Assembly: GCA_964016885.1 (NCBI GenBank) | Contig: OZ024745.1 | Coordinates: 24,428,001-24,492,000 of the forward strand | Origin: Eledone cirrhosa | Taxonomy: Eukaryota | Reading direction: 5' to 3' | Length of the DNA: 64,000 nt | Shown: positions 1,411-54,200 of the stretch, piece after piece | How positions within the stretch are numbered: position 1 is the stretch's first letter | How the letters are laid out: every line of letters starts with the position of its first letter | Translations under genes and position numbers: made by a program | Notes under the pieces: generated by a model | The model's database searches: none | Seen by the model: the letters and a program-made list of their open reading frames with translations, nothing else | Told to the model about the DNA's origin: nothing

Positions 1411-1805
1411 GGTGGATTGGCAGTATCGGTAGAGAGTCGGACGCCATGCTTTCTAGCATAGTTACGTCTCTTTACAGACTGAGTTCAAATCTCACCGAGG
1501 TTAACTTTGCCTTTCATCCTTACGAGGTCGATAAAATAAAATACCAGTAATGTACTTGGTATTGCTGGCCTTGTGCCAAATGTAGAAACAATTATTTATA
1601 TAAGCATCAATGGCGGTAGATTGGCAGTATTGGTAGAAGGTCGGACGCCATGCTTTGCAGCATAGAGTTGCGCCCCTTTACAGTTTGAGTTCAATTCCTG
1701 CCGAGTTCAACTTTGCCTTTCATCCTTACGGGGTCCTATAAAATAAAGTACCAGTAATACACTGGAATAATTGCTGGCCTTGTGCAAAAAGTAGAAACAA
1801 TTATT
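1411..1805 (+). mobile_element. Two adjacent copies of the abundant tRNA-derived SINE
   Basis: A-box TGGCAGTATCGG, B-box GAGTTCAAATC, central TTTGCCTTTCATCCTTACGGGGTCGATAAAATAAAGTACCAG (resembles the Meta/MESC-type SINE domain); the second copy has a ~20-bp TSD AATTATTT(A/T)TATAAGCATCA. Confidence 0.85.
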
Positions 1806-2692
1806 TTTATAAGCATCATAAGTAGAGTCGTGAAACAAAATCAGGGCAAATTTATATAATCTAGTTTCATTGTTTAGATTTCTTTCGTCTGGAATAATAT
1901 TACAGGTTCATTGTGTTCGCATGTCTAGAGGTACCGGGAAATGAAACTCAAATGAATCTGAAAATATTATAGCGACCTGCACCAAGAGAAATAATTATTG
2001 GTTTCTCGAACTAACAATCATCCTTCTATATAGACAGCCTGTTAGAAAGAGCGTGCAAAATCACAGTTGTTACGTAGGTTAGCTGGAAAGTCCCTAGGCT
2101 GAAAAGTTCATAGGCTGACCAGTATACTCTTATGCAATGACCAAATGAGGTTTATTTTTCAACATCGACCCTGGAAAGAAACAACGTGGTTATTAATAAA
2201 CTATGCACATTTCAGTTGACCCCCGTAATCGCTTTCACTGCAGTAGCAGACGACACCACCACCAACAAAAATGACCACAACAGCAACACCAATGTGACTC
2301 ACGGCAACATCTCCACTATTATTAGAGCAAAGAAAAATTTTACAAAAGCTTTTTCCAACAGCAACATCGACTTCACAGTTATACTAACAGCATTTCTACC
2401 AACATACAACGGTCGGCTAAAAAGTTCATATGCTGAAAAGTTCATAGGTTGACCAAGATACTCTTATGGAATTACCAAATGAGGTTTATTTTTCAACATA
2501 GTCCCTGGAAAGAAACAATGCAGTTATAAATAAGAAGAGTTGAAATTAATGCATGCAAGATTTCCCAGTCTAGCATCATTCCTTCATAGGCTGACCAAGA
2601 CACTCTCATGGAATGATCAAATGAGATTTATTTTCAACATAGTCCCTGGAGAGAAACAATGCAGTTATTAATAAAAAGAATTGAAATATAAT

Positions 2693-3752: not shown

Positions 3753-3809
<57 letters not shown>

Positions 3810-4000
3810 GGGCGGTGAATTGGCAGTATCGGTAGAGGGTCGGATGCCATGCTTTCCAGCATAGTTATGTCCCTTTATGGTCTGAGTTCAAATCCTGCCG
3901 AGGTTAACTTTGCCTTTCATCCTTACGGGGTTGATAAAATAAAGTACCAGTAATACACTGGGATAATCGCTGGCCTTGTGCCAAAAGTAGAAACAATTAT
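3810..4000 (+). mobile_element. Same SINE within a (TTA)n tract
   Basis: Full copy with (ATT)n on both sides. Confidence 0.85.
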
Positions 4001-4024
4001 TATTATTATTATTATTATTATTAC

Positions 4025-27277: not shown

Positions 27278-28198
27278 GGTGGATTGGCAGTATCGGTAGA
27301 GGGTCGGACGCCATGTTTTGCAGCATAGAGTTACGGCTATTTATGATCTGAGCTCAAATCCCGCCGAGGTTAACTTTGCCTTTCATCCTTATGGGGTCGA
27401 TAAAATAAAGTACCAGTCGCGCACTGGGGTCGATTTAATCGACTTTCCCCTCCCCCCAAATTACTGGCCTTGTGCCTATATAAGATACCATTATTATTAT
27501 TGGTGGATTGGGCGGTGGGCTGGCAGTATCGGTAGAGGGTCGGACGCCATGCTTTCCAGCATAGTTACGTCCCTTTACGATCTGAGTTCAAATCCCGCCG
27601 AGGTTGACTTTGCCTTTCATCCTTACGGGGTCGATAATATAAAGTACCAGTAATGCACTGGATTATTGCTGGCCTTGTGCCTAAAGTAGAAATAATTATT
27701 ATTGGTGGATTGGCAGTATCGGTAGAGGGTCGGACGCGTTGCTTTGACGCATAGAGTTACGGCCCTTGCCATTCTGAGTTCAAATCCCGCCGAGGTTAAC
27801 TTTGCCTTTCATCCTTACGGGGTCGATAAAATAAAGTACCAGTAATGCACTGGGTGATTGCTGGCCTTGTGCCAAAAGTAGAAACAATTATTTGTGGATT
27901 GGCAGTATTGGTAGAGGGTCGGACGCGTTGCTTTGACGCATAGAATTATGGCCCTTGCCATTCTGAGTTCAAATCCCGCCGAGGTTAACTTTGCCTTTCA
28001 TCCTCACGGGGTCGATAAAATAAAGTACCAGTAATGCACTGGGTGATTGCTGGCCTTGTGCCAAAAGTAGAAACAATTATTTGTGGATTGGCAGTATTGG
28101 TAGAGGGTCGGACGCCATGCTTTGACGCATAGAATTATGGCCCTTGCCATTCTGAGTTCAAATCTCGCCGAGGTTAACTTTGCCTTTCATCCTTACGG
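27278..28198 (+). mobile_element. Five head-to-tail SINE copies
   Basis: Starts at ~27278, 27502, 27704, 27893 and 28083, separated only by short ATT runs; the last copy is truncated. Confidence 0.88.
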
Positions 28199-28929
28199 GA
28201 TTATTATTATTGTTATCATTAATATTATTTTTATTATTATTATTATTGCTATTATTCAAAAACTGGCAATGGTGTAGATCTTGGAAAACATGTTCAAGGC
28301 TAACGAATACGAGGAAATTACCGAACAATGTTAGTTATAATCACTTAACATTGTTATTTTCTGGGAGGTGCTTTATGTTTATCTTTCTAGAGCAAACCAC
28401 AAGAATTACGCAACATGTTGCTATAAGCCCAATATAGTTTTATATTACCATATATATGATGATTTCTTTATTCTATATATATAATAATATAAATACAGTT
28501 AATTAATGAAATAAAAACGAATCTGCGTCCCCTAAGTAGGGACACTATTTTGTTCTGTTTATGTGTTTCTATTGTTTTACAAGTAATCTACATAATATTC
28601 GTGCAATATCTATCATAAGGCTTGCTTCACAACTTCATCTGTGCCAGGTGAAGTTAGTAAAATTATAGACTTCATAAAATATATAATGAAGAATGGATAC
28701 CTAACACAAATAGCCACGAAGTATGAACAAAGAAAAACATTGTCTTCTGTCTTTAGGGATCCAACAGTATCAAAACAGAAGCTGAATTGAGATAATTGTG
28801 AAGAAAATACAAAGCAAAAAAGGCGAAATAACAACTACACAGATCTTCAGAATGCTAAAACGATAGCTAGAATATTCCCTACATCGCTATTACCTGAAAA
28901 GGCTAGGGCGTAAAATGGTGAAAGTAAAC

Positions 28930-32206: not shown

Positions 32207-32400
32207 AAGAGGGGGGAGAGGGATACATACAGGCAGAGATAGATAGAGAACTGGGTCGAGATATAGAATAGAGTGAGAAAGGTTCGGCAGCTCAATAGGG
32301 GAGGAAGGTTTTGGCGATCTGAATTTTCAAGTAGGGACAGACATTATGTTGGTGTGTCTATTCATCTACCTATATATCTACCTATCTACATATCTACCTA

Positions 32401-32487
32401 CCTTTTTTTACACGACTGAATGTCCCCGGCATGTGTCTTTGTATTGTCCCCTTTTCTTGTGCGCCCTTATAGCAAATAAAGAAATAT
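32401..32487 (+). mobile_element. Very short 3' tip of another Tx1-like lineage (family D)
   Basis: TGTCTTTGTATTGTCCCC..GCGCCCTTATAGCAAATAAAGAAATA followed by TATC repeats; degenerate TATC/TACC tract upstream. Confidence 0.65.
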
Positions 32488-32510
32488 ATCTATCTATTTA
32501 TCTATCTATA

Positions 32511-33213
32511 TGGGGGACTGGCACATCGAATGTGCTCAGGCGCTCACAGTCCTCTGGCAAACAGACCCGGCCATCAGTGGAGACTCCACTTCGATATTCT
32601 ATAGAGTGTTGGTCCTCAGCAAGGAGAAACGCTCGGAGAAACTCTGGCCAGTCTGTTCGGTAGGACCTTCCGCCTGGGACCAATGGACAACTTTCAAAAG
32701 TCCATTGTCATGATCAAACCGCCACCCTCATTCAAAAACGAGGGAGAGGCGGTTTTCCTATGTGTTATGGCTATGGTGAAAGAGGTTATATGGTGCACGA
32801 GGTTAAAAGGGTTGAGGTCAGACACCTTTCTCTCCGGCGAGCAACTGATTCGTTTTTTTCAAATAACATTTTGGAAGAAGAATCAGGATGGAGAGAGAGG
32901 TGCTATACCCCAGCAAATTTTATAAAAGGTGGGTGAATGTGGCAAAGATGGCCCGAGTGGCTGGGCCTTCTCTCTATATAAGCCTGTAGGTTGAGGAAAA
33001 AGAGGAAGGAAGTACTCACTCTTGGTGCTCCTGGAGATGAGGGTTGTACATATTTTCGGGGTGTGTACAACCCCTGTGTAACACCTCCCCCCTTTTGAGG
33101 ATTTCAATTGTTATTTGTTATTGTATTAATAGTTTTATTTTCATATACCTGTATGTAAACTCCCCATTTGTATTTGTCCCCTTCTTTTGTGCCCTTGTGG
33201 CTAATAAAGAAAT
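32511..33213 (+). mobile_element. Truncated, internally deleted family B Tx1-like copy
   Basis: Near-identical to parts of 37835-38765, including the 3' UTR; TATC tracts on both sides. Confidence 0.88.
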
Positions 33214-33280
33214 TTATCTATCTATCTACCTACATACTTATCTATCTATCTAACTATCTATCTATCTATCTATCTATCTA

Positions 33281-33672
33281 TCCCCTTCTTTAAGTACCAC
33301 TTCAGAAGGAAGGTGAGAGTGGAAAGAGAGGTGCTACACCCCAGTAAATTCGCTGAAAGGTGGGTGAATGTGGAAAAAATGGCCCGAGTGAATGGGCCTT
33401 CCCTGTATATAAACCTGTAGGTTGAGGAAGATAAACAGAGGGAAGACAGGAACACCTACAAAACGTGTTCCTGGTGTTGAGGGTTGTTCTATCCTTCGGG
33501 GTGTAAAACAACCCTGCAGTAACGTTCCCCCCTACTGGGGATTTCAATTGTTATTTTATTATATATAGTTTATTGTTATTTATTAATGTTAAAGTTATTT
33601 TTATGTAAAACCCCCGCCGTCACGTCTTGTAATGTCCCATTTTTGTACGCCCCTGTGGCAAATAAAGAAAGA
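33281..33672 (+). mobile_element. 3' fragment of a third Tx1-like lineage (family C)
   Basis: Encodes FFKYHFRRKVRVEREVLHPSKFAERWVNVEKMARVNGPSLYINL*; its own 3' UTR ends GCCCCTGTGGCAAATAAAGAAAGA then (TATC)n. Confidence 0.85.
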
Positions 33673-33694
33673 TATCTATCTATCTATCTATCTA

Positions 33695-36600
33695 ACTCCG
33701 GTAGATATTTCAAATGCAAATGAGCTTTTGAATAACGCCAGACAAATATGTAACTTTTGGGGAGTACGGATCATTCTCCATAAACTCTCCCCCTGACTTG
33801 CGAAGAGAAGCTGCCTTGAAAACTGTGATTTTCAGGTGAATCTCAAACAAAACACGAAAACCGACTCAACTTTCACAAGGCGAAATTGAGTTGGCTTTAA
33901 AAAATGCCTTAAAAGACATTGCTTTTATTCAGAAGGGTAGACTCTACGGGAGTTTATCCATTCTAATGACAGACCAATTGGCGGCACAGAAATATTCTGT
34001 GTCGCCAATTGTGTCACCGCTGTTCACCTTTTTCCCCACTTACATGGGGAAAAGGACACAGAAAATAAAAATCCAAAGTATCACACCAAATATTGATATT
34101 TGGTGGGTACTATGTGGATTTTTAAACCACGAAACAGACTATATATATGGATAGGTAAGTCCTCCGGCGACCTGTTCAGCGGAACTAGCCTGGAAGTTCT
34201 GGTCCAAATGACACCAGAACGAATAGCTAGGATCCCGGAACGTGTGTTGCTGGATGGGCTTATATACATAAACATTTCGGTCGAGGGTAGGCGGCCCTCA
34301 TGTTACCACTGCTCAAGCAGGTGTCACCTGAGAGCTTACTGTCCTCGGCTAACTAGCCAAAAAAAGGCACTACTGCCAACACCTGCAACACCAGCACAAC
34401 AATCACCACCACCACCACAACAACAACAACATAAAAAAATAGTGACAACAAAACAAACGACAAACATAGTCCCACCCAACCCCTCCTCACCTAAAACAAC
34501 TCCAGAAACACCCACACATATATCAGCTCCCCAAAATGTACCCCTCCCCAACAACACGGATGAGGCCTCATCATCGTCACCCAGTGACGATGAGGGTGAG
34601 CCTTTCCGACCAGTAAAAAGAAAAAAGAAAAGACATAACAGAAACAAAAATGCAACAAACACACAAACACCAACACAAGCGACGCAAACAGCACAAACAA
34701 AAACACCCCCTCCTGAAAACAAAACACCTACTACAAAACGTAAACACACACAAGAACCACAGACAAAAAGCAACCCAACACAACAAAAATGTTACACCTA
34801 CATAAATACTAACAATAAAACTTTAAGAGACACCATATATAAAAACCCTTCGGGGGAGACCGAAGGGAAAACTTTTCCACACTCTTCGGAGAATCCTAAT
34901 CTTAAAATGATTAGGACCTCCATGAACACACATAAACAGTTGAAAGAAAGATTTCCTAACGACGTAGGTAACCCCTGCGTCAAACCCTACAAACGAGTCC
35001 TGTTAAAATGTTTCCCCACCTCCACCCCTATCCCACCAGACACCCCCTCCCCACCAAACATCTCTGTCCCCACCCCTCCAGAGACCACCACCCCACCAAA
35101 CAACCCCTCCAACACCCTCATGGAAATTGTGCAGCCTGGTCCCCAGGAGACGAAGAGGTGAGTGATTTCTTTTCCTCTTCTTTTAACTTTTCAGCACCAA
35201 CATGGCCAATATAAGAGTTGGATGTGTGAATGTACGCGGATGCCCTGGAAACAGGGCAAACTCTTAAACGACCTCAGGTCGCACAGTATGGATGGAGTAG
35301 CCATTTGCGAGTCCAGGATCCACAGCGAGCGACAACTGGCCCCCATCTTCGACGACTTTAAGACCTACGCATCTCTCTGTCAGCCGAGAGGTGGGGGTGG
35401 GGTTGCCGTTTTGCTGCGGAAACACCTGGACCTCATAACACAGATGGTACATCTGGACCCGGAGGGTCGACTGGTGGTCCTAGACGTTGACGGTAGTGAA
35501 GGTGGAGCCTTCAGGCTGGTAGCCTCATATGCCCCATCCGGGACACCGCGGCCAGACTTCTTCAAACGTCTAGAGACTTTTCTGGGAAATCCCGCTCCCT
35601 ACTGTTAGTGGGGGACTGGAATGGAATCCTAGATGCACATTGGTACTATGAGGGAGCATGTCCCGATAGAGGGGGGTGTAACGGCCTCATACAGTTAATC
35701 GGCCGATTTGACATGGCCGATAGATATCGACTAGATTTTCCGACTGTGCCACTGTGGACGTGGACTAATCGTAGCGGAACATCTAGATCGTACCTAGATA
35801 GGGTTCTAGTTAGAAAGAAGGATAAAGACATGTTAAGCTGTCCACAAATGTTCATGGTTGCCTATTCAGATCACAAATTAGTGACCTGCTTAATCAACCT
35901 TGACAAAACCCATAGACAGGGACCCGGCTACTGGAAGCTGAACTTGTCGTTACCGACATGCAAAGCCTACAGTAGACGGATTAGCACTTTAGTTAAGCAG
36001 CACTTGACGCGGGCCATTGTCAACAACAGATGGTGGTACTCTCTCAAAAGGGCAGTTAGATTAGACTCGATAGGTTTTAGTAAAGAATTAGTGTTAGATA
36101 GAAATAAGATCGAAAATGAACTGGTAGATAAAGTAGAAGAGGCACTTAGGAGTGGCAACGTAGCCAGCGTGCTAGCGACTAGAACAGACTTAGACCAGTT
36201 CTTCAACGCAAAACATGAAGTTTGCGTTGTCAGAAGCAAAATACGTGCTCTGGGAAACGAGGGAGCCAAAGTTGTTGGCTGGGCCCGAGCGAGGGAGGGG
36301 AAAAGTGGCAAGAAGTCCACGATTCGGTCTTCGAAGCAAATGTGCGCGGCCTTTCAGCGGCACTTTGCTCAACTGTTCGGGCAGGGCGGCGCGCCTGGAG
36401 GGGCTATGGATTTCGATTCGTACCTTGACGGCCTACCGCGACTCTCGGACAGCGAGGCGAAGTTCTGCGAAAGGCCGATTTCGGCCGCTGAGATAGGGGA
36501 CGCGCTGAGCCAATGCGGCAAACGCAAATCTCCAGGTCTCGATGGTCTACCCTACGAATTTTACGTAGCAATGCCGGACTTGTTCTCCGGTCTCCTGGAA

Positions 36601-38765
36601 GCGGTCTACTGCAACTGGCAGCAGAACGGGAAAATTCCCAGTTCTGTGACCAAGGGCGTAATCACGTTAGTCAGGAAGGACGAGGACAAGGGGGATGACA
36701 TAGGCAACTTCTGGCCCATAACTCTGCTCAACACAGAGTTACAAATTTGGGCCAAGGTGTTAGCAAAGAGGCTGGCGCTTGTCTTCGAAAACCTGGTCCA
36801 TACACGACAACCTCCACCTCGTGCGATACATCATAGAGAGGGTAGGGTGTAAACCCGGCTTCGGTGGCCCTGATCAACTTAGATCAGTCTAAGGCTTTCG
36901 ATAGGGTTGACCATCGTTACCTGGATGCGGTGCTCGAGGCGGCAGGTTTCGGACCCGTGTTCAGGGGCTGGATTGCTACAATGCACAGCAGCAACATCTA
37001 CTCAAAGGTCAAGGTGAACGGCTACCTCTCGGAGCCGTTCCATATCACGTGATCCATCCGACAGGGATGCTCTCTCTCCTCCCTTCTGTACGTACTGACT
37101 CTCGAGCCACTACCACGGAAGTTGGAGCTATTGGAGGGCATTCCTTTGGAACCGGGACTGCGGAAAGCGGCGTCGGCTTTCCGACGATGTAGTAGTAATG
37201 GTGTCGAGCACCTCGCAAATCGGGGAGATCGGCACCTTACTGGAGGAATATGAAAGGTTCACAGGAGCGAAGCTGAACCGGGACAAATCCGTCGCTTTGC
37301 AACTCGGAACGTGGAGAGGCAAACCGATGCCTTGCGATGACGTCGTCGGGGCTGGACGGAAGGACCGGTAAAGCTGCTCGGGGTCTGGTTTGGTCCGGAC
37401 CTCCAGGTGGAGAAGAACTGGAACGAGGTGACGGCCAAGGTGTTTGCGCTCACCCAGAAGTGGGCCGAGTGCAAACTATCCTTGAAAGGTCGAGCGGAGG
37501 TGGCGAACACTTTTATAGCGTCCGTCATCTACTACCGCTTGACCTTCGTGCCTTGTCCAGCCAAAACGCTCACCAAAATGGAGTGCGCGCTCTTCCAATT
37601 CCTTTGGAAGAAACGGGCTCCTTTGGTGAGAAGATCCATCTGCTGCTAACACCCTTCAAACGGAGGGCTGGGGATGCCGTGGCTGACGATGCGCAAACAC
37701 GCGTTCAGGCTGCGGCACCTCCACGTATTCTTCACCAGACAACCGGTGTGGGCCCCGTTCGTGAGGCGAACCTTCACACGACTCGTCTCGCTGACCGAGC
37801 TGCAGTCCTAGGTCAAGCAAAGACCGAGGTAAATGGGCGACTGGCACATCGAATGTGCTCAGGCGCTCACAGTCAAACGGACCCGGCGATCAGTGGAGAC
37901 TCCACTTCGACATTCTTTAGAGGGTTGGTCCGCAGCATGTGTGACGACACGCTCGGAGAAACTCTAGGCGTAGAGGAGGACAAACTGGCCAGTCTGTTCT
38001 GTAGGACCTTCCGCCCGGGACTAAAGGACAACTTCCAAAAGTCCCTGGCCTGGCAGTGCTACCGAGGAGCTCTACCAGTTCGAAACAAGCTCTACAGACA
38101 TGGGCGCCCGGGTAGGGACCCATCGATAAAGATCTGTCCGAGATGCGTGCGAGACGACGAAACCGTCGCACACGCTTGTACACTTCCCGGGCGTTACCGA
38201 CTTGTGGAGCTATGTAGAACGACTATTGTCGCGGGTGGGACCAATCCGAGTCCATTGTCATGATCAAACCGCCACCCTCATTCAAAAACGAGGGAGAGGC
38301 GGTTTTCCTATGTGTTATGGCTATGGTGAAAGAGGTTATATGGTGGACGAGGTTAAAAGGGCTGAGGTCAGACACCTTTCTCTCCGGCGAGCAACTGATT
38401 CGTTTTTTTCAAATACCATTTTGGAAGAAGAATCAGGATGGAGAGAGAGGTGCTATACCCCAGCAAATTTTATAAAAGGTGGGTGTATGTGGCAAAGATG
38501 GCCCGAGTGGTTGGGCCTTCTCTCTATATAAGCCTGTAGGTTGAGGAAAAAGAGGAAGAGAGGAAGGAAGTACTCACTCTTGGTGCTCCTGGAGATGAGG
38601 GTTGGACATATTTTCGGGGTGTGTACAACCCTTGTGTAACACCTCCCTCCTATTGAGGATTTCAATTGTTATTTGTTATTGTATTAATAGTTATATTTTC
38701 TGTATGTAAACTCCCCATTTGTATTTGTCCCCTTCTTTTGTGCCCTTGTGGCTAATAAAGAAATT
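33695..38765 (+). mobile_element. Near-full-length, frameshifted family B Tx1-like element
   Basis: ORF1 remnant (PVDISNANELL, CYHCSSRCHLRAYC) and fragmented APE/RT; distinct 3' UTR ending GCCCTTGTGGCTAATAAAGAAATT then (TATC)n. Confidence 0.92.
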
Positions 38766-39035
38766 TATCTATCTGTCTATCTATCTATCTATCTATCTAT
38801 CTGTCTCTATCTATCTCTATCTATCTCTGGGATGGACACACGCGTATAACTTGCTGAGTAAGTTCTGTTTAAATTTCTATAGAAATTCTTGTCTGATAAC
38901 TTTAATTTTTGTACCATTTTGTAGAGGGACTGCCAGGTCAAACTTTGATCTGGTCAGTCTCTCAAAATATTCTACGCCTTTAGGCGAAATAGTTAAAAAA
39001 AGTTTTTTCTTGTTGAAAAGTCAATATTTTTTTAA

Positions 39036-40817
39036 ATGGCCGAAGCTTCTTCACCAAAATTCGAAGGAGGAAAGGGGAAGATGAACTTACAGCTTCCCCC
39101 TGCCACTGTCACAGTAGCAGAGGTCAAGAAGATAGGTCAGCCAGAGGAAGAATTCTCTCCACCTGTTAACCGACAACTTGACGTTACCATGGCAACAACC
39201 CAAAGAACCAACAGCAACAACAACAACAATGCGACGGTAGAAAACAACACCAATAACAATAACAATAACAACAACAAGACCAATAACGGTGACAACAACA
39301 ACAATGATAACAACAACACCACCAACGACAACAACAACACAAACAAACAAAATTTCTCCTTCGCCGAGACGACAAGGAAAACCCTCGACTATCTGCCAGT
39401 AGATATAACAAAAGCGAAGGAGCTACTGGCGGATGCGAAAAAATATATAGTGTACGGGGAAAATGGTTCATTCACAATCCATTCCCCCCCGGAACTAAAA
39501 AGCCAGAGACTCCTAAACACGGTCATGTTTAGGACAATCTCGAACAAAAGTAAAAAACCAGCTCAACCATCACAGAGCGAGATAGAGCTGGTTTTAAAAG
39601 ACGTCATGAAGGACATCACCTTCATTCAGAAGGATAGACTCTACGGGAGTCTATCCATTCTCATGAAGGACAGGGACACAGCAGTGAAACTGTCCATCAA
39701 ACCAATCACATCCACCGCATACACCTTCTACCCTACGTACATGGGTAGAAGAACACAAAAAATAAAAATCCACACCATCCTGCCGATTATGGACATATGG
39801 TGGGTTTTGACAGGTTTTCTGGACCTGGAGGATGACATGCTGGTGTCCATGGGAAAGGCATCGGGTGACGCGTTCAGTGGAACGAGCCTCGAACTTGTAG
39901 TTCAAATGAGGCCCGAAAGGATCGCCCAGATCCCTGAACGCGTCATACTGGATGATCTAACCTTCATCAACATTACCGTTGAGGGTAGACGGCCCTCGTG
40001 TTACCTCTGCGGAACCAGAGGTCACCTGAGGGCTGTCTGTCCCCAACTTAATAAGAAAACCCCAATCCTGCCTACACCACCAACAACTGCACAACCAACA
40101 CAATCACCACAACAACCACTACAAAAACAACCACCACAGCTCAAACCAAAACAAAACAATGTCCAACCCATCCCCTCCACTCAAAAAACAAAAACAATTT
40201 CCAAAACACCCGTACCGCAAACACAACCCGAAAATATACCCCTCCCCTCCAACGCGGAAGATGACCCTAGTTCGTCGTCAGACGAGGAGGAGCACTTCCA
40301 CACAATCAAAAGAAAAAAAAGAAAACACACCTCAGACACACAAATGAAAAAAACCCCTCCCCAAAACATAACACTGACACCAACACAAAAGAGCTCACAA
40401 CAGCAAACAAAAAACACCACACAAAAACAAAAACATGCATACACATACATAAATACAAGAAACAAAAAACTGTTAAACATTGTGTACAACAACAATCTAA
40501 TAAAAACACAAGGGCCTAACTTCACCCAGGCAGGGGATTTCCCCCACCTCAAAATGATTAAGGCCCCACAGGACACCTATAAAACTTTAAAAAACAATTT
40601 TAAAGAGGACGTGGGTCCCCCCTGCGTCGGGCCCATTAACCGAGTCCTCCTAAAAAACTATCCCACCCCCTCCCCAAACACCCTCACAACTCCAAGCTCC
40701 CCAACCACACAACACACTGATGCCCCCACACTTCCACAAACCACCACCCCACCCAACAACCCATCCCCCACCCTAATGGAAATTGTGCAGCCCGATACCC
40801 GGGACGCAGAGAGGTAA
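39036..40817 (+). CDS. ORF1 (gag-like nucleic-acid-binding protein) of the Tx1-like LINE
   Basis: 593-aa ORF with a CCHC zinc knuckle (CYLCGTRGHLRAVC), a poly-Asn tract and a Pro/Thr/Gln-rich C-terminal half; homologous to the decayed ORF1 at 33.7-35.2 kb. Confidence 0.9.
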   Translation: MAEASSPKFEGGKGKMNLQLPPATVTVAEVKKIGQPEEEFSPPVNRQLDVTMATTQRTNSNNNNNATVENNTNNNNNNNNKTNNGDNNNNDNNNTTNDNNNTNKQNFSFAETTRKTLDYLPVDITKAKELLADAKKYIVYGENGSFTIHSPPELKSQRLLNTVMFRTISNKSKKPAQPSQSEIELVLKDVMKDITFIQKDRLYGSLSILMKDRDTAVKLSIKPITSTAYTFYPTYMGRRTQKIKIHTILPIMDIWWVLTGFLDLEDDMLVSMGKASGDAFSGTSLELVVQMRPERIAQIPERVILDDLTFINITVEGRRPSCYLCGTRGHLRAVCPQLNKKTPILPTPPTTAQPTQSPQQPLQKQPPQLKPKQNNVQPIPSTQKTKTISKTPVPQTQPENIPLPSNAEDDPSSSSDEEEHFHTIKRKKRKHTSDTQMKKTPPQNITLTPTQKSSQQQTKNTTQKQKHAYTYINTRNKKLLNIVYNNNLIKTQGPNFTQAGDFPHLKMIKAPQDTYKTLKNNFKEDVGPPCVGPINRVLLKNYPTPSPNTLTTPSSPTTQHTDAPTLPQTTTPPNNPSPTLMEIVQPDTRDAER

Positions 40818-40841
40818 GTGCCTTTTCTCTTCACCACCAAC

Positions 40842-43800
40842 ATGGCTATGCTAAGAGTAGGCTGTTTAAATGCGCGTGGCCTGGGCTCAACTTGGAAGCA
40901 AGCAATGCTTCTAAATGACCTCAGGTCACAACGTATAGATGTGATGGTTATTTGCGAGGCCCGGATCAGCAACGTGCGACAGCTGGCCCCCACCTTTGAT
41001 GACTTTGAGATGCACGCATCTCTCTGTCAGCCTGGAGGTGGGGGTGGAGTTGTCGTTCTGCTGCAAAAACATCTGGGTCTCGCAACACAGATGGTACATT
41101 TGGACCCGGAGGGTCGACTAGTGGTTCTGGACCTTGGCAGTGGTAAAGGCGGAGCGTTTAGGTTGGTAGCCGCCTACGGCCCTTTCGGGTCAATGCGGCC
41201 GGACTTCTTCCATCGTCTGGAGACTTTTCTAGGGACGTCCCGCTCCTTGCTATTAGTGGGGGACTGGAATGGTATCCTAGATGCACGTTGGGACTACGTA
41301 GGGGCCTGCCCCGATAGAGAGGGGTGTAATAGCCTCAAAGGGTTAATCGGTCGATTTGACCTGGCCGATAGATATCGACTAGATTTTCCGACTGCGCCAA
41401 CCTGGACTTGGGCAAATCGTAGCGGATCATCTAGGTCGTACCTAGATAGGTTCTTAGTTAGAATTAAGGATAAGGAATTTTTAAGTTGTCCAAAAATGCG
41501 CATTGTTGGCTATTCAGACCACAAATTAGTGACCTGCATGGTCAACCTTGACAGAACTCATAGACAGGGCCCCGGTTACTGGAAGCTCAACTTGTCCTTG
41601 CCGGCAAGTAGAGCCTACAGGAATCGGATTAGTACGTTAGTTAAGGAACGGTTGACTGGAGCGATCGTCAACAGCAGGTGGTGGGTATCTCTAAAGAGAG
41701 AGATTAGAGTAGTCTCGATAGAATTTAGTAAGGTTCTAGCTGCGGATAGGAATAGGAAGGAAAGGGAGCTAATAGATAGAGTAGAAGAGGCAATTAGAAG
41801 CGGCGACGTGGCCAGAGTGCTAGCGTCGAGAACGGCTTTGAGCCAGTTTTTCGACGCGAAGCACGAAGGCTGCGTTGTCCGAAGTAAAATACGTGCTCTA
41901 GGGAACGAGGGGACCAAAGCTGTTAGCTGGGCCCGCGTGACAGAGGCCAACAGTGGAACTAAATCCACCATCCGGTCTTTGCGAGACCTGGATGGACGGG
42001 CGATTCTTGAGCCTAAGCAGATGTGTGAGGCCTTTCAAAGGCACTTTGCCCGACTGTTCGGGAGGGGCGGGGAGCCGGTTGGGAACGTGGACTTCGGTCC
42101 ATACCTCGACGGCCTGCCGCGCCTCTCGGACAGGGAGGCGAAGTCCTGCGAGGAGCCGATTTCGGCCGCTGAGATAGAGGACGTGCTGAGCCAATGCGGC
42201 AAACGCAAATCCCCGGGTCTCGATGGTCTTCCTTACGAATTATATCTAGCTATGCCGGACTTGTTCCCCGATCTCCTCGAGGCGGTCTACTGCAACTGGC
42301 AACAGAACGGGAGAATTCCCTGTACTGTGACCAAGGGCGTAGTCACGCTAGTGAGGAAGGACGAGAACAAGGGGGACGAAATAAGTAACTTCAGGCCCAT
42401 AACACTGCTAAATACAGAGTTACAGATTTTGGCCAAGGTGCTAGCAAAGAGGTTGGCGCTTGTCGTGGGCAACCTGGTGGGAGATGCGCAGACATGCGCT
42501 ATCCCGTCCAGGTCCATCCATGACAACCTCCACCTCATGCGATACATCATAGAGAGGGTTGGGAACGAACCCGGCTTTGGTGGGGCTCTGATCAACTTGG
42601 ATCAATCTAAGGCGTTCGATAGGGTCGACCATGGTTACCTGGATGCGGTGCTAGCGGCGGCAGGCTTCGGACCCGTTTTCAGGGGCTGGATCACTGCTAT
42701 GCACAGCAGCCGCATCTGCTCTAGGGTCAAGGTGAACGGCTACCTCTCGGAGCCGTTCAAAATCGCGCGGTCCATCCGACAAGGGTGCCCTCTCTCCTCC
42801 CTTCTGTATGTATTGACTCTCGAGCCACTACTGCGGAAGTTGGAGTTGTTGCAGGGCATCCCTTTGGAACCGGGATTGCGGAAAGCGGTGTCGGCCTACG
42901 CCGATGACGTGACAGTAATGGTGTCGACGGCTTCCGAAATCGAGGCGGTCGGCACCTTACTGGAGGAGTACGAAAAGTTCACAGGGGCTAAGCTGAACCG
43001 GGACAAGTCGATCGGTTTGCAACTCGGCACGTGGAGGGGCAGACCGATGCCCTCCGATAGCGTCGTCGGACGCTGGACGGAGGGCCCGGTGAAGTTGCTC
43101 GGGGTCTGGTTCGGACCGGACCTCCAGGTGGAGAAAAACTGGGCGGAGGTTACGAACAGAGTGTTTGCACTGACCCAGAAGTGGGCCAGTTGCAAACTAT
43201 CCCTGAAAGGTCGGGCGGAGGTGGCGAACACCTACATAGCGTCCGTCATCTACTACCGCCTGACCGTAGTGCCCTGCCCAAGGGAAACCCTCACCAAGAT
43301 GGAGCGCGCGCTCTTCCAATTCCTTTGGAAGAGGCGGGCTCCTATGGTGAGGAGATCCATCTGCTGTCAACACCCTTCGAAAGGAGGGCTGGGGATGCCG
43401 TGGCTAATGATGCGTAAACACGCATTAAGGCTACGGCACCTCTACGTATTCCTCACCGGACAACCGGTGTGGGCCTCGTTTGTGAGACGAACCTTTCCCA
43501 GACTCGTCTCACTCACCGAGCTGCAATCCTGGGTCAAGCAAAGACCGAGAAAACTGGGCGCCTGGCACACTGAGTGTGCCCAGGCGCTCACCGCCCTCTG
43601 GCAGGCGGATCCGGTTATCAGTGGAGACTCCACCGCAACATTCTATAGAGGGCTGGTACGCAGCAGGTGCGACGACGCCCTCGGAGAAGCCCTAGACATG
43701 GAGGAGGACGAACTGGCCAGCCTTTTCGGTAGGACATTTAGCCCGGGACCTATGGACAACTTCCAGAAGTCCCTGGCCTGGCAGTGCTACCGAGGGGCTT

Positions 43801-44279
43801 TACCCGTTCGAGAAAGGCTCTACAGACACGGGCGCCCGGGTAGGGACCCCGCCAAAAAGATCTGTCCCAGATGCGTGTGCGACGAGGAAACCGTTGCACA
43901 CGCATTAGTACACTGCTCGGGCGTAGCCGATCTGTGGGGCTATGTCGAACAACTGCTGTCAAGGGTGGGACCGATCCGGTTGACCACCGAGTCTATTGTA
44001 ATGATCAAGCCGCCTCCCCCCTTCAAAGATGAAGCAGAGGCGGTGTTTCTGTGCGTAATAGCCATGGCGAAAGAGGTTGTATGGTGGACGCGTCTGAAAG
44101 GACTGAGGTCGGGCACCTTTCTCTCTGGCCAACAACTGGTCCGTTTCTTCCGATATCATTTCGGAAGAAGGATCAGGATGGAGAGAGAGGTGCTGCACCC
44201 CAGCCGTTTCTATGAAAGATGGGTGAAAGTGGCGAGAATGGCCCGTGTGAATGGGCCTTCACTCTACATCAGACTATAG
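40842..44279 (+). CDS. ORF2: AP endonuclease + reverse transcriptase + C-terminal zinc-binding domain
   Basis: APE motifs LNARGL, GDWNG, YLDRF, SDH; RT motifs KSPGLDGL, FRPITLLN, LDQSKAFDRV, RQGCPLS, YADD; terminal CPRC..EETVAHALVHC. First ATG is at 40842 (the ORF track starts at a GTG at 40818). Confidence 0.96.
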   Translation: MAMLRVGCLNARGLGSTWKQAMLLNDLRSQRIDVMVICEARISNVRQLAPTFDDFEMHASLCQPGGGGGVVVLLQKHLGLATQMVHLDPEGRLVVLDLGSGKGGAFRLVAAYGPFGSMRPDFFHRLETFLGTSRSLLLVGDWNGILDARWDYVGACPDREGCNSLKGLIGRFDLADRYRLDFPTAPTWTWANRSGSSRSYLDRFLVRIKDKEFLSCPKMRIVGYSDHKLVTCMVNLDRTHRQGPGYWKLNLSLPASRAYRNRISTLVKERLTGAIVNSRWWVSLKREIRVVSIEFSKVLAADRNRKERELIDRVEEAIRSGDVARVLASRTALSQFFDAKHEGCVVRSKIRALGNEGTKAVSWARVTEANSGTKSTIRSLRDLDGRAILEPKQMCEAFQRHFARLFGRGGEPVGNVDFGPYLDGLPRLSDREAKSCEEPISAAEIEDVLSQCGKRKSPGLDGLPYELYLAMPDLFPDLLEAVYCNWQQNGRIPCTVTKGVVTLVRKDENKGDEISNFRPITLLNTELQILAKVLAKRLALVVGNLVGDAQTCAIPSRSIHDNLHLMRYIIERVGNEPGFGGALINLDQSKAFDRVDHGYLDAVLAAAGFGPVFRGWITAMHSSRICSRVKVNGYLSEPFKIARSIRQGCPLSSLLYVLTLEPLLRKLELLQGIPLEPGLRKAVSAYADDVTVMVSTASEIEAVGTLLEEYEKFTGAKLNRDKSIGLQLGTWRGRPMPSDSVVGRWTEGPVKLLGVWFGPDLQVEKNWAEVTNRVFALTQKWASCKLSLKGRAEVANTYIASVIYYRLTVVPCPRETLTKMERALFQFLWKRRAPMVRRSICCQHPSKGGLGMPWLMMRKHALRLRHLYVFLTGQPVWASFVRRTFPRLVSLTELQSWVKQRPRKLGAWHTECAQALTALWQADPVISGDSTATFYRGLVRSRCDDALGEALDMEEDELASLFGRTFSPGPMDNFQKSLAWQCYRGALPVRERLYRHGRPGRDPAKKICPRCVCDEETVAHALVHCSGVADLWGYVEQLLSRVGPIRLTTESIVMIKPPPPFKDEAEAVFLCVIAMAKEVVWWTRLKGLRSGTFLSGQQLVRFFRYHFGRRIRMEREVLHPSRFYERWVKVARMARVNGPSLYIRL

Positions 44280-44570
44280 GTGAGGAAGATGAAAGACCAA
44301 GGGAGCACCCCTTCTCTGTGCTCCTGAGGAGAAGGGTTGCACACTTTTTTCGGGGGTGTGTGCGACCCCCCAAGGCGCCTCCTCTCTATTGAGGATTTTG
44401 TTAAAAATTTTATTTTTTGTTATATCTTATTTTATTTTTATATTTTGTTATTGCCTTCTCCTTATTGAGGACGCCTTTTTGTGTAAACTCCCCCCTTTGT
44501 ACTTGTCCCACTTTTGATGCCCTAGTGGCAAATAAAAGAAATATATCTATCTATCTATCTGTCTATCTAT

Positions 44571-46828
44571 GGGGAGCCGGTTGGGGATGTGGACTTCGGT
44601 CCATACCTCGACGGCCTGCCGCGTCTCTCTGACAGGGAGGCGAAGTCCTGCGAGGAGCCGATTTCAGCCGCTGAGATAGAGGACGTACTGAGCCAATGCG
44701 GCAAACGCAAATCCCCGGGTCTCGATGGTCTTCCATGCGAACTATATCTAGCTATGCCGGACTTGTTCCCCGATCTCCTCGCGGCGGTCTACTGCAACTG
44801 GCAACAGAACGGGAGAATTACCTGTGCTGTGACCAAGGGCGTAGTCACGCTAGTGAGGAAGGACGAGAACAAGAGGGACGATATAAATAATTTCAGGCCC
44901 ATAACTCTGCTAAATACAGAGTTACAGATTTTGGCCAAGGTGCTAGAAAAGAGGTTGGCGCTTGTCGTGGGTAACCTGGTGGGAGATGCGCAGACATGTG
45001 CTATCCCGTCCAGGTCCATCCACGACAACCTCCACCTCATGCTATACATCATAGAGAGGGTTGGGAACGAACCCGGCTTTGGTGGGGCCCTGATCAACTT
45101 GGATCAATCTAAGGCATTCGATAGGGTCGACCATGGTTACCTGGATGCGGTGCTAGCGGCGGCAGGCTTCGGATCCGTTTTCAGGCCTGGATCAATGCCA
45201 TGCACAGCAGCCGCATCTGCTCTAGGGTCAAGGTGAACGGCTACCTCTCGGAGCCGTTTGAAATCGGCGGTCCATCCGACAGGGGTGCCCTCTCTCCTCC
45301 CTTCTGTATGTAATGACTCTAGAGCCACTGCTGCGGAAGTTGGAGTTGTTGCAGGGCATCCCGTTGGAACCGGGATTGCGGAAAGCGGTGTCAGCCTACG
45401 CCGATGACGTAACAGTAATGGTGTCGACGGCCTCGGTCTGCAACTCGGCACGTGGAGGGGCAGATCGATGCCCTCCGATGGCGTCGTCGGGAGCTGGACG
45501 GAGGGCCCGGTGAAGTTGCTCGGGGTCTGGTTCGGACCAGATCTCCAGGTGGAGAAGAACTGGGGTGAGGTAACGAACAGGGTGTTTGCACTGACCCAGA
45601 AGTGGGCCGAGTGCAAACTGTCCCTGAAAGGTCGGGCGGAGGTGGCGAACACTTATATAGCGTCCGTCATCTACTACCGCCTGACCGTTGTGCCTTGCCC
45701 AAGGGAAACGCTCGCCAAAATGGAGCGCGCACTCTTCCAATTCCTTTGGAAGAAGCGGGCTCCTATGGTGAGGAGATCCATCTGCTGTCAATACCCTTCG
45801 AAAGGAGGGCTGGGGATGCCGTGGCTAATGATACGTAAACACGCATTAAGGCTACGGCACCTTCAGGTATTCCTCTCCGGTCAACCGGTGTGGGCCCCGT
45901 TTGTGAGGCGAGCCTTTCCCAGACTCGTCTCACTCACCGGTGGTTAGCAGGTGCGACGACACCCTCGGAGAAGCCCTAGGCATGGAGGAAGACGAACTGG
46001 CCAACCTGTTCGGTAGGACATTTAGCCCGGGACCCATGGATAACTTCCAGAGGTCCCTGGCCTGGCAATGCTACAGAAGGGCTCTGCCCGTTCGAGAAAG
46101 GCTCTACAGACACGGGCGCCCGGGTAGGGACCCCTCGAAAAAGATCTGTCCCAGATGCGTGTGCGACGAGGAAACCGTTGCACACGCATTGGTACACTGC
46201 TCGGGCATTGCCGATCTGTGGGGCTATGTCGAACAACTGCTGTCAAGGGTGGGACCGATCCGGTTGACCACCGAGTCTATTGTAACGATCAAGCCGCCTC
46301 CCCTCTTCAAAAACGAAGGAGAGGCGGTGTTTCTGTGCGTAATAGCCATGGCGAAAGAGGTTGTATGGTGGACGCGTCTGAAATGACTGAGGTCAGACAC
46401 CTTTCTCTCTGGCCAACAACTGGTCCGTTTCTTCCGATATCATTTCGGAAGAAGGATCAGGATGGAGAGAGAGGTGCTGCACCCCAGCCGTTTTTATGAA
46501 AGATGGGTGAAAGTGGCGAGAATGGCCCGTGTGAATGGGCCTTCACTCTACATCAGACTATAGGTGAGGAAGATGAAAGACCAAGGGAGCACCCCTTCTC
46601 TGTGCTCCCGAGGAAAAGGGTTGCACACTTTTTTCGGGGGTGTGTGCGACCCCCCAAGGCGCCTCCTCTCTATTGAGGACGTTGTTATAAATTCTATTTT
46701 TTGTTATATTTTATTTTATTTTTATATATTGTTATTGCCTCCTCCTTATTGAGGACGCCTTGTTTTGTAAACTCCCCGCATTGTACTTGTCCCACTTTTG
46801 ATGCCCTGGTGGCAAATAAAAGAAACAT
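44571..46828 (+). mobile_element. 5'-truncated, decayed subfamily A' Tx1-like copy
   Basis: Fragmented RT ORFs; same deletion junction as 23497-25041 plus a private deletion at ~45434; begins directly after the TATC tail of the full-length copy. Confidence 0.9.
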
Positions 46829-46956
46829 ATCTATCTAACTAACTAACTATCATACTACCGCTCTATGATATATAGAAATAGATAGAGATACAGAAAGAGA
46901 AAGAAGGAGAGAATGAGACAGGCAAGGAGTAGATATGAAGGTGGGTAGATACACAC

Positions 46957-47318: not shown

Positions 47319-47388
<70 letters not shown>

Positions 47389-47389
<1 letters not shown>

Positions 47390-47470
47390 TTCTTTACTAG
47401 CCACAAGGGCGCAACAAGAGATAGATAGATAGGGCCATACACAGGTAGATGTGCATACGCCAAGTCGATA
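47389..47470 (-). mobile_element. 3' tip of a Tx1-like lineage (family E) with a (TATC)n tail
   Basis: Minus strand reads GCGCCCTTGTGGCTAGTAAAAGAAA then (TCTA)n at ~47290-47388. Confidence 0.65.
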
Positions 47471-51383: not shown

Positions 51384-51794
51384 GATATACTAATGACAGC
51401 AAAAAGAGAAAAGCACTTAGAGACATGGACGAGGACAATAAGATACATAGACAGTGGTGAATAGAAAATGGCGGTAAGATCTGAAGAGGAAAATCAATGA
51501 AACAATGAGGCGGGGGGGGGGTAGAAGAGACATTTAAAGTAAATATAGTGGAAAGAGAGTGGGGAATAGGGGGAGAGAAGGAGAGGGAGGAAGAGGGGGA
51601 GAGAAGGAGATGGAGGAAGATGGGGAGACAAGGAGAGTGAGGAAGAAGGGGGGCAGTGAGGAAGAAGGGGGAGTGAGGAAGAGGGTGAGAGAAAGAGAGG
51701 GAGACTAAAGGAAGACATGAACTTCTTGGATGATTGGTATTAATCAGTGATTATATTGATGGGTCTGATGTCAGGTGACAAAGGTGAAGACTAG

Positions 51795-53270
51795 GCTGGT
51801 GGTATTGATGGTAGTATAATGGTGGTGGTGTGGGTGGTGGTGGTGGTGGTGGTGTTCGGAGTAGTGGTGCTGGTAATGGTGGTAGTGGTGCTGGTAATGG
51901 TGGTGGTTTTGATGGTAGTATAATGGTGGTGGTGGTGGTGGTGTGGGTGGTGGTGTTCGGAGTAGTGATGCTGGTAATGGTGGTGGTATTGATGGTAGTA
52001 TAATGGTGGTGGTGTGGGTGGTGGTGGTGGTGGTGGTGTTCGGAGTAGTGGTGCTGGTAATGGTGGTAGTGGTGCTGGTAATGGTGGTGGTATTGATGGT
52101 AGTATAATGGTGGTGGTGGTGGTGGTGTGGGTGGTGGTGTTCGGAGTAGTGATGCTGGTAATGGTGGTGGTATTGATGGTAGTATAATGGTGGTGGTGTG
52201 GGTGGTGGTGTGGGTGGTGGTGTTCGGAGTAGTGATGCTGGTAATGGTGGTGGTATTGATGGTAGTATAATGGTGGTGGTGGTGGTGTGGGTGGTGGTGG
52301 TGTTCGGAGTAGTGATGCTGGTAATGGTGGTGGTATTGATGGTAGTATAATGGTGGTGGTGGTGGTAGTATAATGGTGGTGGTGTGGGTGGTGGTGGTGT
52401 TCGGAGTAGTGATGCTGGTAATGGTGGTGGTATTGATGGTAGTATAATAGTGGTGGTGGTGGTGTGGGTGGTGGTGGTGTTCGGAGTAGTGATGCTGGTA
52501 ATGGTGGTGGTATTGATGGTAGTATAATGGTGGTGGTGTGGGTGGTGGTGGTGTTCGGAGTAGTGATGCTGGTAATGGTGGTAGTGGTGCTGGTAATGGT
52601 GGTGGTGGTGGTGGTGTTTGGAGTAGTGATGCTGGTAATGGTGGTGGTGTTGTGATGCTGGTAATGGTGTTAGTGGTACTGGTAATGGTGGTGCTATTGG
52701 TGGTAGTATAATGGTGGTGGTGGTGGTGGTAGTGGTGTTGTTGATTGTGCCAATGGTGGTATACTGGTAATATTGAGAGTTGTGATCCTGGTAATGGTGG
52801 TGGTGTTGTGATGCTGATAATGGTGGCGGTGTTGGGAGTAGTGGTGGTGGTGGTGTTGGGAGTAGTGGTGGTGATAGTGGTGGTGGTGTTGGGAGTAGTG
52901 GTGGCGGTGTTGGGAGTAGTGGTGGTGATGGTGGTGATAGTGGTGGTGGTGTTGGGAGTAGTGGTGGTGGTGTTGGGAGTAGTGGTGGTGATGGTGGTGA
53001 TAGGGGTGGTGGTGTTGGGAGTAGTGGTGGTGATGGTGGTGGTGATAGCGGTGGTGGTGTTGGAAGTAGTGGTGGTGATGTTAACAATCGTATGATGGTG
53101 GGGATGGTGATGATGGTGATAGAGTTTGTGGTGGCAATGGTAATGGTGTTGATTAGTGGTTGTAAGTGTTGGAGTTGATAATGGTATGGTGGTGGTGATG
53201 GCGGTGGAGGTGGTAATCGTCGTGGTAGTGGTGTTGCTGGTGGTGGTGACGATGATGGTGGTAGTGTGGG
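51795..53270. repeat. GGT-rich compound minisatellite
   Basis: Recurring TTCGGAGTAGTGATGCTGGTAATGGTGGTGGTATTGATGGTAGTATAAT with variable (GGT)n, then TTGGGAGTAGTGGTGGTG units. Confidence 0.85.
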
Positions 53271-54200
53271 AGGCTATGATTAAGAAGCATAAAAAAATGT
53301 TCGTATGAACGATTACCGAGGTGAAAATTGAAAATGGCGGCGCATGATGAGTGTTGGGTAATGAGTTGCTTAGAGAAAGTGGAAACTAAAGAGAGGAAGG
53401 GAAAGAATGAGAAAGCAATGTATGGAGGGAAATGGTAAAAATAAATACAGGATAAGAAGAAGTGACAGATATGGTAGGGGATTCTAGAGGAGAGGTAAGA
53501 GGTGAAGGTGGAAGAAATTCAGAAATTACATAGGATTTAACCCTTATGGGCAACAGATAGAGAAAAAACTAGCCATCACACGAAGATACTTGTTAGTTTA
53601 ACTATAAGGCAGTAACAAAGGTCCAGTGCAAAATTTTGTATAATAATGCAAAACTTACGGAGCGATTTAACACGTGGAGTTGAGACACGAAACAAAAACA
53701 ACAGCGACAATAATAAAAATGACTTCTGATTTAGGCACAAGGCCAAAGCTTTTTTTTTTTTGGTGGGGAAGTCGATTAAATTCACCCCAGTGCATTACTA
53801 GTACTTTATATTCCTGAAGGATGAAAGGCAAAGCTAATCTCGGTGGGATACAAACTCAGATCATAAAGGGCCGTAACTACACGCTCTAAACATTATCTGA
53901 CTCTCTACCGATACTTCCAAATAATAAAAATAATAAAATGATTCCTACTATAGGCACAAGGCCACTAATTTGGGAAGAGGGGAAAGTCGATTTAATTGAC
54001 CCCAGTGCATTACTGGTACTTTATCTTATCAACCTGGTAAGGATGAAAGGCAAAGCTAACCTCGGTGCTATTTGAATTCAGAACGTAAAGCACCGCCGAG
54101 GTTAGCTTTGCCTTTCATCCTTGCCAGGTCTATAAAATAAAGTACCAGTAATGCACTGGGATCGATTTAATAACAACAATAATATTAATAATATTAATAA

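Follow-up and report, generated by a model that had tools for sequence, protein, structure and literature searches.

Six same-strand LINE copies belonging to four lineages lie head-to-tail at positions 32366-46851 of the window, the 64,000-nt stretch of Eledone cirrhosa DNA analysed here, and the best explanation overall, to which we assign a probability of about 0.8, is that they are APE-RT non-LTR elements that insert into (TATC)n, duplicate ~16 bp of the target and add no tail of their own. Sister lineages in the same genome occupy other repeats, and lineage and target correspond almost one to one.

Results

The array lies on the plus strand and is preceded by a degenerate TATC/CTAC tract (32366..32403). 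Its copies, delimited by sequence matches, are an 83-bp 3' tip of lineage D (32404..32486), a 5'-truncated and internally deleted copy of lineage B (32510..33214; 95% identity to the long B copy over its last 517 bp), a 390-bp 3' fragment of lineage C (33283..33672), a long B copy truncated inside ORF1 (33697..38765; 76% identical to A) in which ORF2 is disrupted by frameshifts and stops, a full-length lineage A element of 5,715 bp (38829..44543), and A', a 5'-truncated copy that is ~95% identical to A and has two internal deletions (44571..46827). A terminal degenerate TATC tract closes the array (46828..46851), and the spacers between copies are TATC tracts of 23 (32487..32509), 68 (33215..33282), 24 (33673..33696), 63 and 27 bp (44544..44570). 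The initial annotation had described six consecutive plus-strand copies with TATC spacers; all six were recovered at that place and on that strand, each ending, as it had also described, in AATAAA(A)GAAA and then TATC without poly(A), with two lineage-typical bases in between. The 3' end is fixed among the copies and the 5' truncation points vary. The 3' regions are 68-84% identical among the lineages of the window and 95-96% identical within B and within A/A'. Direct reading identifies a 21-bp target-site duplication of A by a diagnostic G, with the 5' copy at 38786..38806 and the 3' copy at 44544-44564, and a TATC-like 5' extension of 22 nt (38807..38828) leads from the duplication to the head of A.

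Beyond the span first annotated, sequence matches place a second array on the minus strand (19885..25040), with an A' copy (23498-25040), an A copy (20394-23477) and a 3' tip (19885-20334), each flanked on both sides by TATC tracts, and a ~30-bp 3' tip, also on the minus strand, between two TATC tracts (47387..47419). The A' copies of the two arrays have a private deletion in common. Allelic duplication of the arrays was ruled out, as their outer flanks do not match, and so was a deleted, non-autonomous A' subfamily, as the two window copies alone span the deletion (40 scored of 78 candidates).

Lineage A is intact, as had been annotated: ORF1 (39036..40817, plus strand, 593 aa) is an open frame with a CCHC knuckle (CX2CX4HX4C), and ORF2 (40842..44279, plus strand, ATG at 40842, 1145 aa) encodes an APE endonuclease, a reverse transcriptase (YADD) and a C-terminal zinc motif; both ORFs are kept in 22 of 42 full-length loci. 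Pfam matched APE, RT and zf-RVT in ORF2, the last with a score under the curated cut-off, and gave no domain match for ORF1, for which Atlas matches at 0.90-0.92 carry zf-CCHC and ZCCHC3-type RNA-binding domains. The catalytic N, E, Y, D-x-N, D and H of ORF2 line up with those of human L1, and a PDB search returned L1 ORF2p with an E-value of 2e-48 (residues 12-865) and R2 with 3e-19 (RT only). Two ORFs, an ORF2 with an N-terminal APE and RT that is nearer to L1 than to R2, and a fixed 3' end with 5' truncation and target-site duplication, the signature of target-primed reverse transcription, place the elements in the L1 group. Tx1-clade ORF1 proteins carry a CCHC knuckle and an RRM-like domain, and ORF1 of lineage A agrees with this by its knuckle and by the domains of those Atlas matches. 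The elements are likely members of the Tx1 clade; no named Tx1 reference was among the matches of homologue searches with these elements, and the tree described below contains no anchor such as Tx1L, Keno, Kibi or Koshi. Relatives occur in other species, with an Argonauta protein and the clade at 50% identity. All 40 scored 3' UTR matches are 100% identical, and the lineages are likely still active.

Across the genome, the 3' end common to the lineages has 38,454 matches, of which 15,317 continue into TATCTAT and 13,426 into ATTATTA, and poly(A) follows none of 330 distinct termini. Periodic TATC of at least 8 nt follows the 3' end in 53 of 70 A rows, and the initial annotation had read TATC in this place as a tail. 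The tail test was informative in 25 of 137 two-junction rows, the other 112 being uninformative, and at 22 of those 25 the 5' duplicate, with a median length of 16 bp, contains all of the 3' TATC run; such a tail is unsupported, since the TATC on the 3' side comes from duplication of the target. Target-site duplications measure 9-29 bp and begin at TAT, and L205, L189, L158, L162, L026 and L013, which lie in satellites or (TA)n, have 0 or 1 TATC unit on the 3' side. At three C junctions (L093, L098 and L101) the 3' side has TATC but the 5' duplicate reads TGTC, as would result either from an RNA-templated overhang of a few bases or from mutation after insertion. Full-length copies carry a TATC-like 5' extension of 6-19 nt beyond the duplication, and that of A in the window measures 22 nt. 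Predicted folds of the 3' ends, made without shuffled sequences for comparison, are weak, and the contigs of four runs showed no usable empty allele of the array.

A tabulation of 5' flanks bears out the TATC targeting that the initial annotation had proposed. Of 30 5'-truncated A copies, 23 have a TATC 8-mer in the 20 nt before the 5' junction, and 627 of 398,720 control positions (0.157%) have a TATC-phase 8-mer at that upstream distance; the available part of PMC4494074 takes a flank present in >20% of copies as target preference. Within 20 nt of the junction the 8-mer was also found in 34 of 39 full-length A copies and in B (16/21), C (15/25) and D (8/22), the counts for C and D being low partly because the boundary caller halted at internal deletions. 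The junction samples are best-scoring genome matches and are therefore biased to young copies. Satellites, (TA)n and rearrangements account for the 7 of 30 5'-truncated A copies that lack TATC at the 5' junction, so that the specificity is a strong preference and not absolute. The suggestion that these elements help to explain GATA-repeat abundance is unsupported, because a 200-kb control sample contains fewer tracts of TATC (8) than of TG (46), TC (20), TATG (13) or TAA (13).

Every insertion ends up with TATC to its left and right, and these tracts are therefore landing sites for the next insertion; two copies (L149 and L008) are inserted exactly at the 3' junction of an older copy. The renewal of landing sites that had been proposed thus stands, but its cause is target duplication and a short 5' extension, not a copied tail. 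The accompanying idea that arrays are built by insertion is also supported, though not for every array: a same-strand neighbour is present for 31 of 67 A copies, but three full-length copies with identical spacers and a 5,764-bp period look like a tandem duplication rather than serial insertion, and an array of lineage G has two identical spacers.

Sister lineages that target ATT or a satellite, absent from the initial annotation, share the 3' end. TATC forms the 3' flank in A (88/99, with TA in 9 more), B (48/53), C (21/26) and D (30/32), ATT in E (37/37) and F (38/38), and a satellite in G (24/24). ATT is also present at the 5' junction of 9 of 12 long E loci, the F boundary calls not being counted since they extended into flanking SINEs, and in G all 30 of the 3' ends and all 20 of the 5' ends scored fall at one position of a 72-bp satellite. 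The ORF2 of the TATC lineage is 68-70% identical to that of the (ATT)n lineages and 84% identical to that of G. A quick tree search, with SH-aLRT support only and with 233-340 aa fragments as part of the input, gave 97 for a TATC+G clade, 99 for F as its sister and 97 for G inside the A/B group, E's placement not being fixed against the two outside cephalopod-like proteins in the tree. In this genome one and the same chassis has undergone at least two changes of target, for which the branching suggests the order ATT, TATC, 72-bp satellite.

Discussion

The likely route of insertion is target-primed reverse transcription, begun when the endonuclease nicks the GATA strand. The endonuclease would favour TATCTAT-like DNA and nick within the first unit, the RNA may extend a few bases beyond AAUAAA into UAUC and pair with the nicked primer, this pairing would set the start of reverse transcription, and the 5' extension would pair with the target during second-strand synthesis.

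Pairing might do more than this, and a tentative alternative, possible but less probable than not, is that RNA-DNA pairing mainly sets the target, with transcripts that bear the donor repeat at both ends, an endonuclease that is only loosely TA-preferring, and landings in a new repeat that found new lineages. The lack of poly(A) at a fixed junction, the TATC-like 5' extensions of full-length copies (6-19 nt past the duplication), the three C junctions at which TGTC is read as TATC, and the larger full-length share of G (20/20 copies) vs A (10/39) favour it, as does a beta-hairpin region that hardly changes between A (NRSGSSRS), G (NRSGTSRS) and E/F (NRIGSSRS) although their targets differ. RNA-target pairing has also been proposed for internal starts of SART1, in the available text of PMC7265360, and as a filter in L1 (PMC1950540). 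However, about 40% of endonuclease positions differ when TATC lineages are compared with ATT lineages, and 23% when A is compared with G, in a comparison that covers no C or D sequence, and this divergence leaves ample room for protein specificity; the same part of PMC7265360 reports that exchange of the SART1 and TRAS1 endonucleases exchanges their targets. Off-target A copies, moreover, still begin at TAT or TAC, and a sub-lineage of A with a satellite as its fixed target was not observed. We regard it as rather unlikely that the lineages, Tx1-like LINEs without a tail, radiated recently and inherit their target largely from the donor flank through the RNA ends, each landing in a new repeat founding a specificity (ATT, TATC, satellite).

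The version first annotated, in which a (UAUC)n tail on the RNA is copied at each new site and makes a new microsatellite there, is very improbable: periodic TATC does follow most A copies, and the three C junctions have a few extra TATC-phase bases on the 3' side, but nothing was added at 22 of the 25 informative junctions, and copies in (TA)n or satellites lack a TATC tail. Least credible of all is random insertion followed by survival or duplication in microsatellites, with arrays formed by unequal crossing-over. The tandem trio with identical spacers, the identical pair of spacers within the G array and the private deletion common to the A' copies of both strands agree with it, but the youngest copies (100% identical) are already ~500-fold enriched, the duplications start at a fixed phase, the array in the window mixes four lineages (68-84% identical) with differing truncation points, and each lineage keeps its own repeat.

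Targeting of microsatellites by LINEs has precedents, and microsatellite-targeting Tx1 elements are already known. The available parts of PMC4494074 and PMC3812793 describe Kibi and Koshi, of the teleost Tx1 clade, in (TC)n and (TTC)n. The Eledone elements resemble them as APE-type elements sitting in microsatellites, but, compared by description and not by sequence, differ in that their targets are (TATC)n, (ATT)n and the 72-bp satellite, with only a few pure TC flanks. Crocodilian Tx1 families, in the same part of PMC4494074, target (TTCC)n/(TTTC)n with several target groups per genome, a likeness in both tetranucleotide targets and their plurality; Tx1-Mar shares its target with a SINE, SINEU, and tandem SINEU-3 insertions sandwich a target-site duplication. 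Tx1-Mar is represented by old copies (85-87% to consensus), whereas the Eledone lineages have intact copies >99% identical, and ORF2 sequences 68-84% identical between lineages with different targets. The parallel with SART/TRAS that had been drawn is apt for SART1 and TRAS1 (R1 clade, telomeric TTAGG) in the APE endonuclease, the simple-repeat target and the clustering within it, but is loose because SART1Bm copies in the genome end in poly(A), a tail that in the available text of PMC7265360 is required for an accurate start. Here the sites are interstitial, 0/330 termini have poly(A) and the clade is different. Dong is an R4-clade element with a restriction-like endonuclease. It appears, for TAA repeats, with Waldo/Mino (ACAY, AC repeats) among microsatellite-targeted LINEs in the available part of PMC3812793, and E and F differ from it in that their sense strand reads ATT rather than TAA. 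For Octopus vulgaris, the accessible portion of PMC13282606 lists 80 L1-Tx1 families (56 Mb, 13 recently active), which may include the present ones, and mentions there no target preference, nor GATA or TATC. No report of (TATC)n, (ATT)n or the 72-bp satellite as targets was found in the literature searched, with Repbase, Dfam and reference Tx1 sequences outside the comparison.

Conclusions

Microsatellite recognition by APE-type LINEs is described as not well understood in the available part of PMC3812793. With three targets, intact lineages of near-identical copies, ORF2 proteins that are 16-32% different and tens of thousands of readable junctions, the present set of lineages suits tests of target change by endonuclease swap and RNA-flank swap, and is a source of repeat-specific integrases. 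A large share of the Tx1-like content of this genome has a non-random placement, a point of importance to repeat annotation, and the flanks of GATA or ATT microsatellite markers may be transposon ends. If target inheritance through the RNA ends were true, these elements would represent a natural LINE integrase that is steered by RNA, can be re-aimed and is also the driver of the host's abundant ATT-flanked SINE.

Target preference of lineages A to D

In the window, six plus-strand LINE copies lie head to tail with 23–68 bp TATC spacers between them, as initially annotated: reading of the sequence places a tip of lineage D at 32404-32486, an internally deleted B at 32510-33214, C at 33283-33672, a long B at 33697-38765, A at 38829-44543 and A', a 5'-truncated, internally deleted A copy, at 44571-46827. 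The minus strand holds a further three-copy array, just past which lies an N run (about 25210-25400), plus one isolated 3' tip. The intact coding capacity attributed to A was confirmed, with a 593-aa ORF1, in which a CCHC knuckle is present, and an APE-RT ORF2 of 1145 aa, whose best solved-structure relative is human L1 ORF2p and whose closest named match is an Argonauta hians protein (66%), which makes the host a likely octopod; both ORFs are kept at 22 of 42 full-length loci. The window also contains a minisatellite (16612-18784; 29-bp unit, 75 copies) and a complex tandem repeat (51751-53385) with minus-strand open frames of 290–540 codons.

Targeting of (TATC)n was assessed by tabulating 5' flanks among the genome matches that scored best against the head of A and the 3' ends of all four lineages (A, B, C and D), with 60 longer stretches also retrieved, and scoring a TATC-phase 8-mer at most 20 nt from the 5' junction. 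Truncated copies are the fair test, because full-length copies carry their own 5' extension. Most truncated A copies (23/30, 77%) have TATC there, about 500-fold above the background of 0.157% (627 of 398,720 positions in 20 arbitrary 10-kb stretches). The 8-mer was also found for 34/39 full-length A, 16/21 B, 15/25 C and 8/22 D copies, several C and D misses being due to internal deletions, so that element sequence continues into the flank scored. The A counts omit L155 (5' flank not available) and L184-L185 (below the 96% identity filter) and include both L014 and L195, halves of one inverted duplication; the D count omits L143, a duplicate locus. The target preference is real and well supported. 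At L014, L041 and L195, a full-length A is paired in inverted orientation with a truncated copy, and the 3' flanks of the two are identical.

The 3' TATC run is duplicated target

Among 137 copies with both junctions, 25 were informative, their duplication being 9 bp or longer and extending beyond the TATC run. Of these, 22 have the entire 3' run inside the 5' duplicate (9–29 bp, median 16), so the (TATC)n tail originally proposed does not hold. The remaining three, all of lineage C, have TATC on the 3' side and TGTC in the 5' copy, compatible with a few RNA-templated bases. Where copies lie in (TA)n or in unrelated satellites, TATC is absent or limited to one unit belonging to the target, and poly(A) follows none of 330 distinct termini. 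Window A is flanked by a 21-bp duplication (38786-38806 and 44544-44564) marked by a diagnostic G, and therefore entered the spacer between the long B and A'. Full-length copies have TCT at their upstream edge (T, C and T in 37, 36 and 38 of 38), and TATC-like sequence continues 6–19 nt beyond the duplication in all seven informative ones; the element-added sequence is therefore at the head.

Arrays, activity and TATC abundance

The proposal of self-perpetuating arrays stands in part. A same-strand neighbour lies within about 120–170 nt of 31/67 A copies, and the copies at L008 and L149 start exactly at the 3' junction of an older one, but some arrays, such as three full-length copies with a 5,764-bp period and identical spacers, look like duplications rather than serial insertions. 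The 3' UTR matches were 100% identical to A in 40 of 40 scored, and we infer present-day activity of lineage A. The two window A' copies, 20 kb apart (45433-46827, plus; 23498-24892, minus), match at 98.6% identity, and both have a 143-bp deletion absent from all other scored matches; their outer flanks are unlike each other, and they may reflect local copying or gene conversion.

A dispersed repeat at L005, L008, L018 and L160 ends in a TATC tract, into which A copies have inserted at three or more loci. Another recurring sequence, after TATC tracts at L160, L183, L186, L201 and L132, is similar to the A head, and a further TATC lineage may have this sequence as its 5' end.

The suggestion that such elements help to explain GATA abundance was not supported: the 200 kb of control DNA holds 8 TATC tracts of at least three units, fewer than TG (46), TC (20), TATG (13) or TAA (13), and 2 of 7 merged TATC tracts lie next to such a terminus. 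TATC tracts are split and slightly lengthened by the elements, which do not look like their main source.

Sister lineages with other targets

Two relatives from control DNA carry the same terminal motif followed by (ATT)n. This shared terminus has 38,454 matches in the 3.0-Gb genome (reversed control, 0), with TATCTAT after 15,317 and ATTATTA after 13,426. The ATT lineages E and F have ORF2s 68% and 70% identical to that of A, intact in one E copy; ATT follows all termini (E 37/37, F 38/38) and, for 9 of 12 long E loci, adjoins the 5' junction too, and target duplications are visible at L264 and L291. ATT tracts past E copies (L364-L366 and E loci) often lead into a recurring antisense sequence, which by eye looks like the end of a restriction-endonuclease-type LINE; on this likeness, E may exploit TAA tails left by Dong-like elements. 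An abundant tRNA-like SINE (window 1411-1818, 3790-4003 and 27250-28256), found in tandem runs, proceeds on its sense strand into (ATT)n, and TTA repeats lie on either side of the copy at 3790-4003. The SINE is a possible partner of the ATT lineages; its terminal motif resembles the E/F terminus over only about 24 nt.

Lineage G (L351-L357, L371-L420), with an ORF2 84% identical to A, occupies a 72-bp satellite whose arrays exceed 30 units. Its 3' ends fall at a single satellite position (30/30), as do its 5' ends (20/20), all of these 20 copies being full-length, against 10/39 for A; the identical junction pair in all examined copies implies that insertion either removed 7 bp of target or duplicated 65 bp. 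In one head-to-tail series, six G copies are 1 to about 20 satellite units apart.

In a quick IQ-TREE analysis of 61 RT rows (A, 16 further genome copies and a selection of 44 of the homologues retrieved), E and F fall outside the TATC clade and G is nested within it (SH-aLRT 97–99, no bootstrap), the TATC label of L213 being based on one unit only. The cephalopod group has as its sister a large clade of metagenome-derived ORF2s (P0006-P0083) at about 50% identity.

Mechanism and relation to known elements

The junction structure is observed; we infer the nick chemistry and RNA ends. Target-primed reverse transcription most likely starts where the first GATA unit is nicked, and there the nicked strand would pair with RNA extending just beyond the AAUAAA signal, and a second nick would fall about 16 bp from the first. 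The endonucleases differ widely among lineages; the region aligned to the L1 minor-groove hairpin, whose role is described in PMC1950540, varies little, reading NRSG in A, B and G and NRIG in E and F. Because endonuclease swaps redirect SART1 and TRAS1 (PMC7265360), we favour a protein preference that would be refined by RNA pairing.

Preference of this kind is already known from Kibi (TC), Koshi (TTC), crocodilian TTCC/TTTC families and Tx1-Mar (PMC4494074, whose main text names no TATC or GATA target), and TATC is absent from the list of microsatellite-targeted LINEs in PMC3812793. L1-Tx1 elements have been counted in O. vulgaris (PMC13282606), with no target preference stated there or in its one supplement. 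No TATC- or GATA-targeting Tx1 element is described in the literature searched, including the consulted parts of PMC4640811, PMC3747384, PMC8869645, PMC8967140, PMC4824008, PMC7265360 and PMC1950540; these targets may already be catalogued in Repbase or Dfam, which lay outside the search. The lineages provide a series of target switches that is unusually amenable to study.
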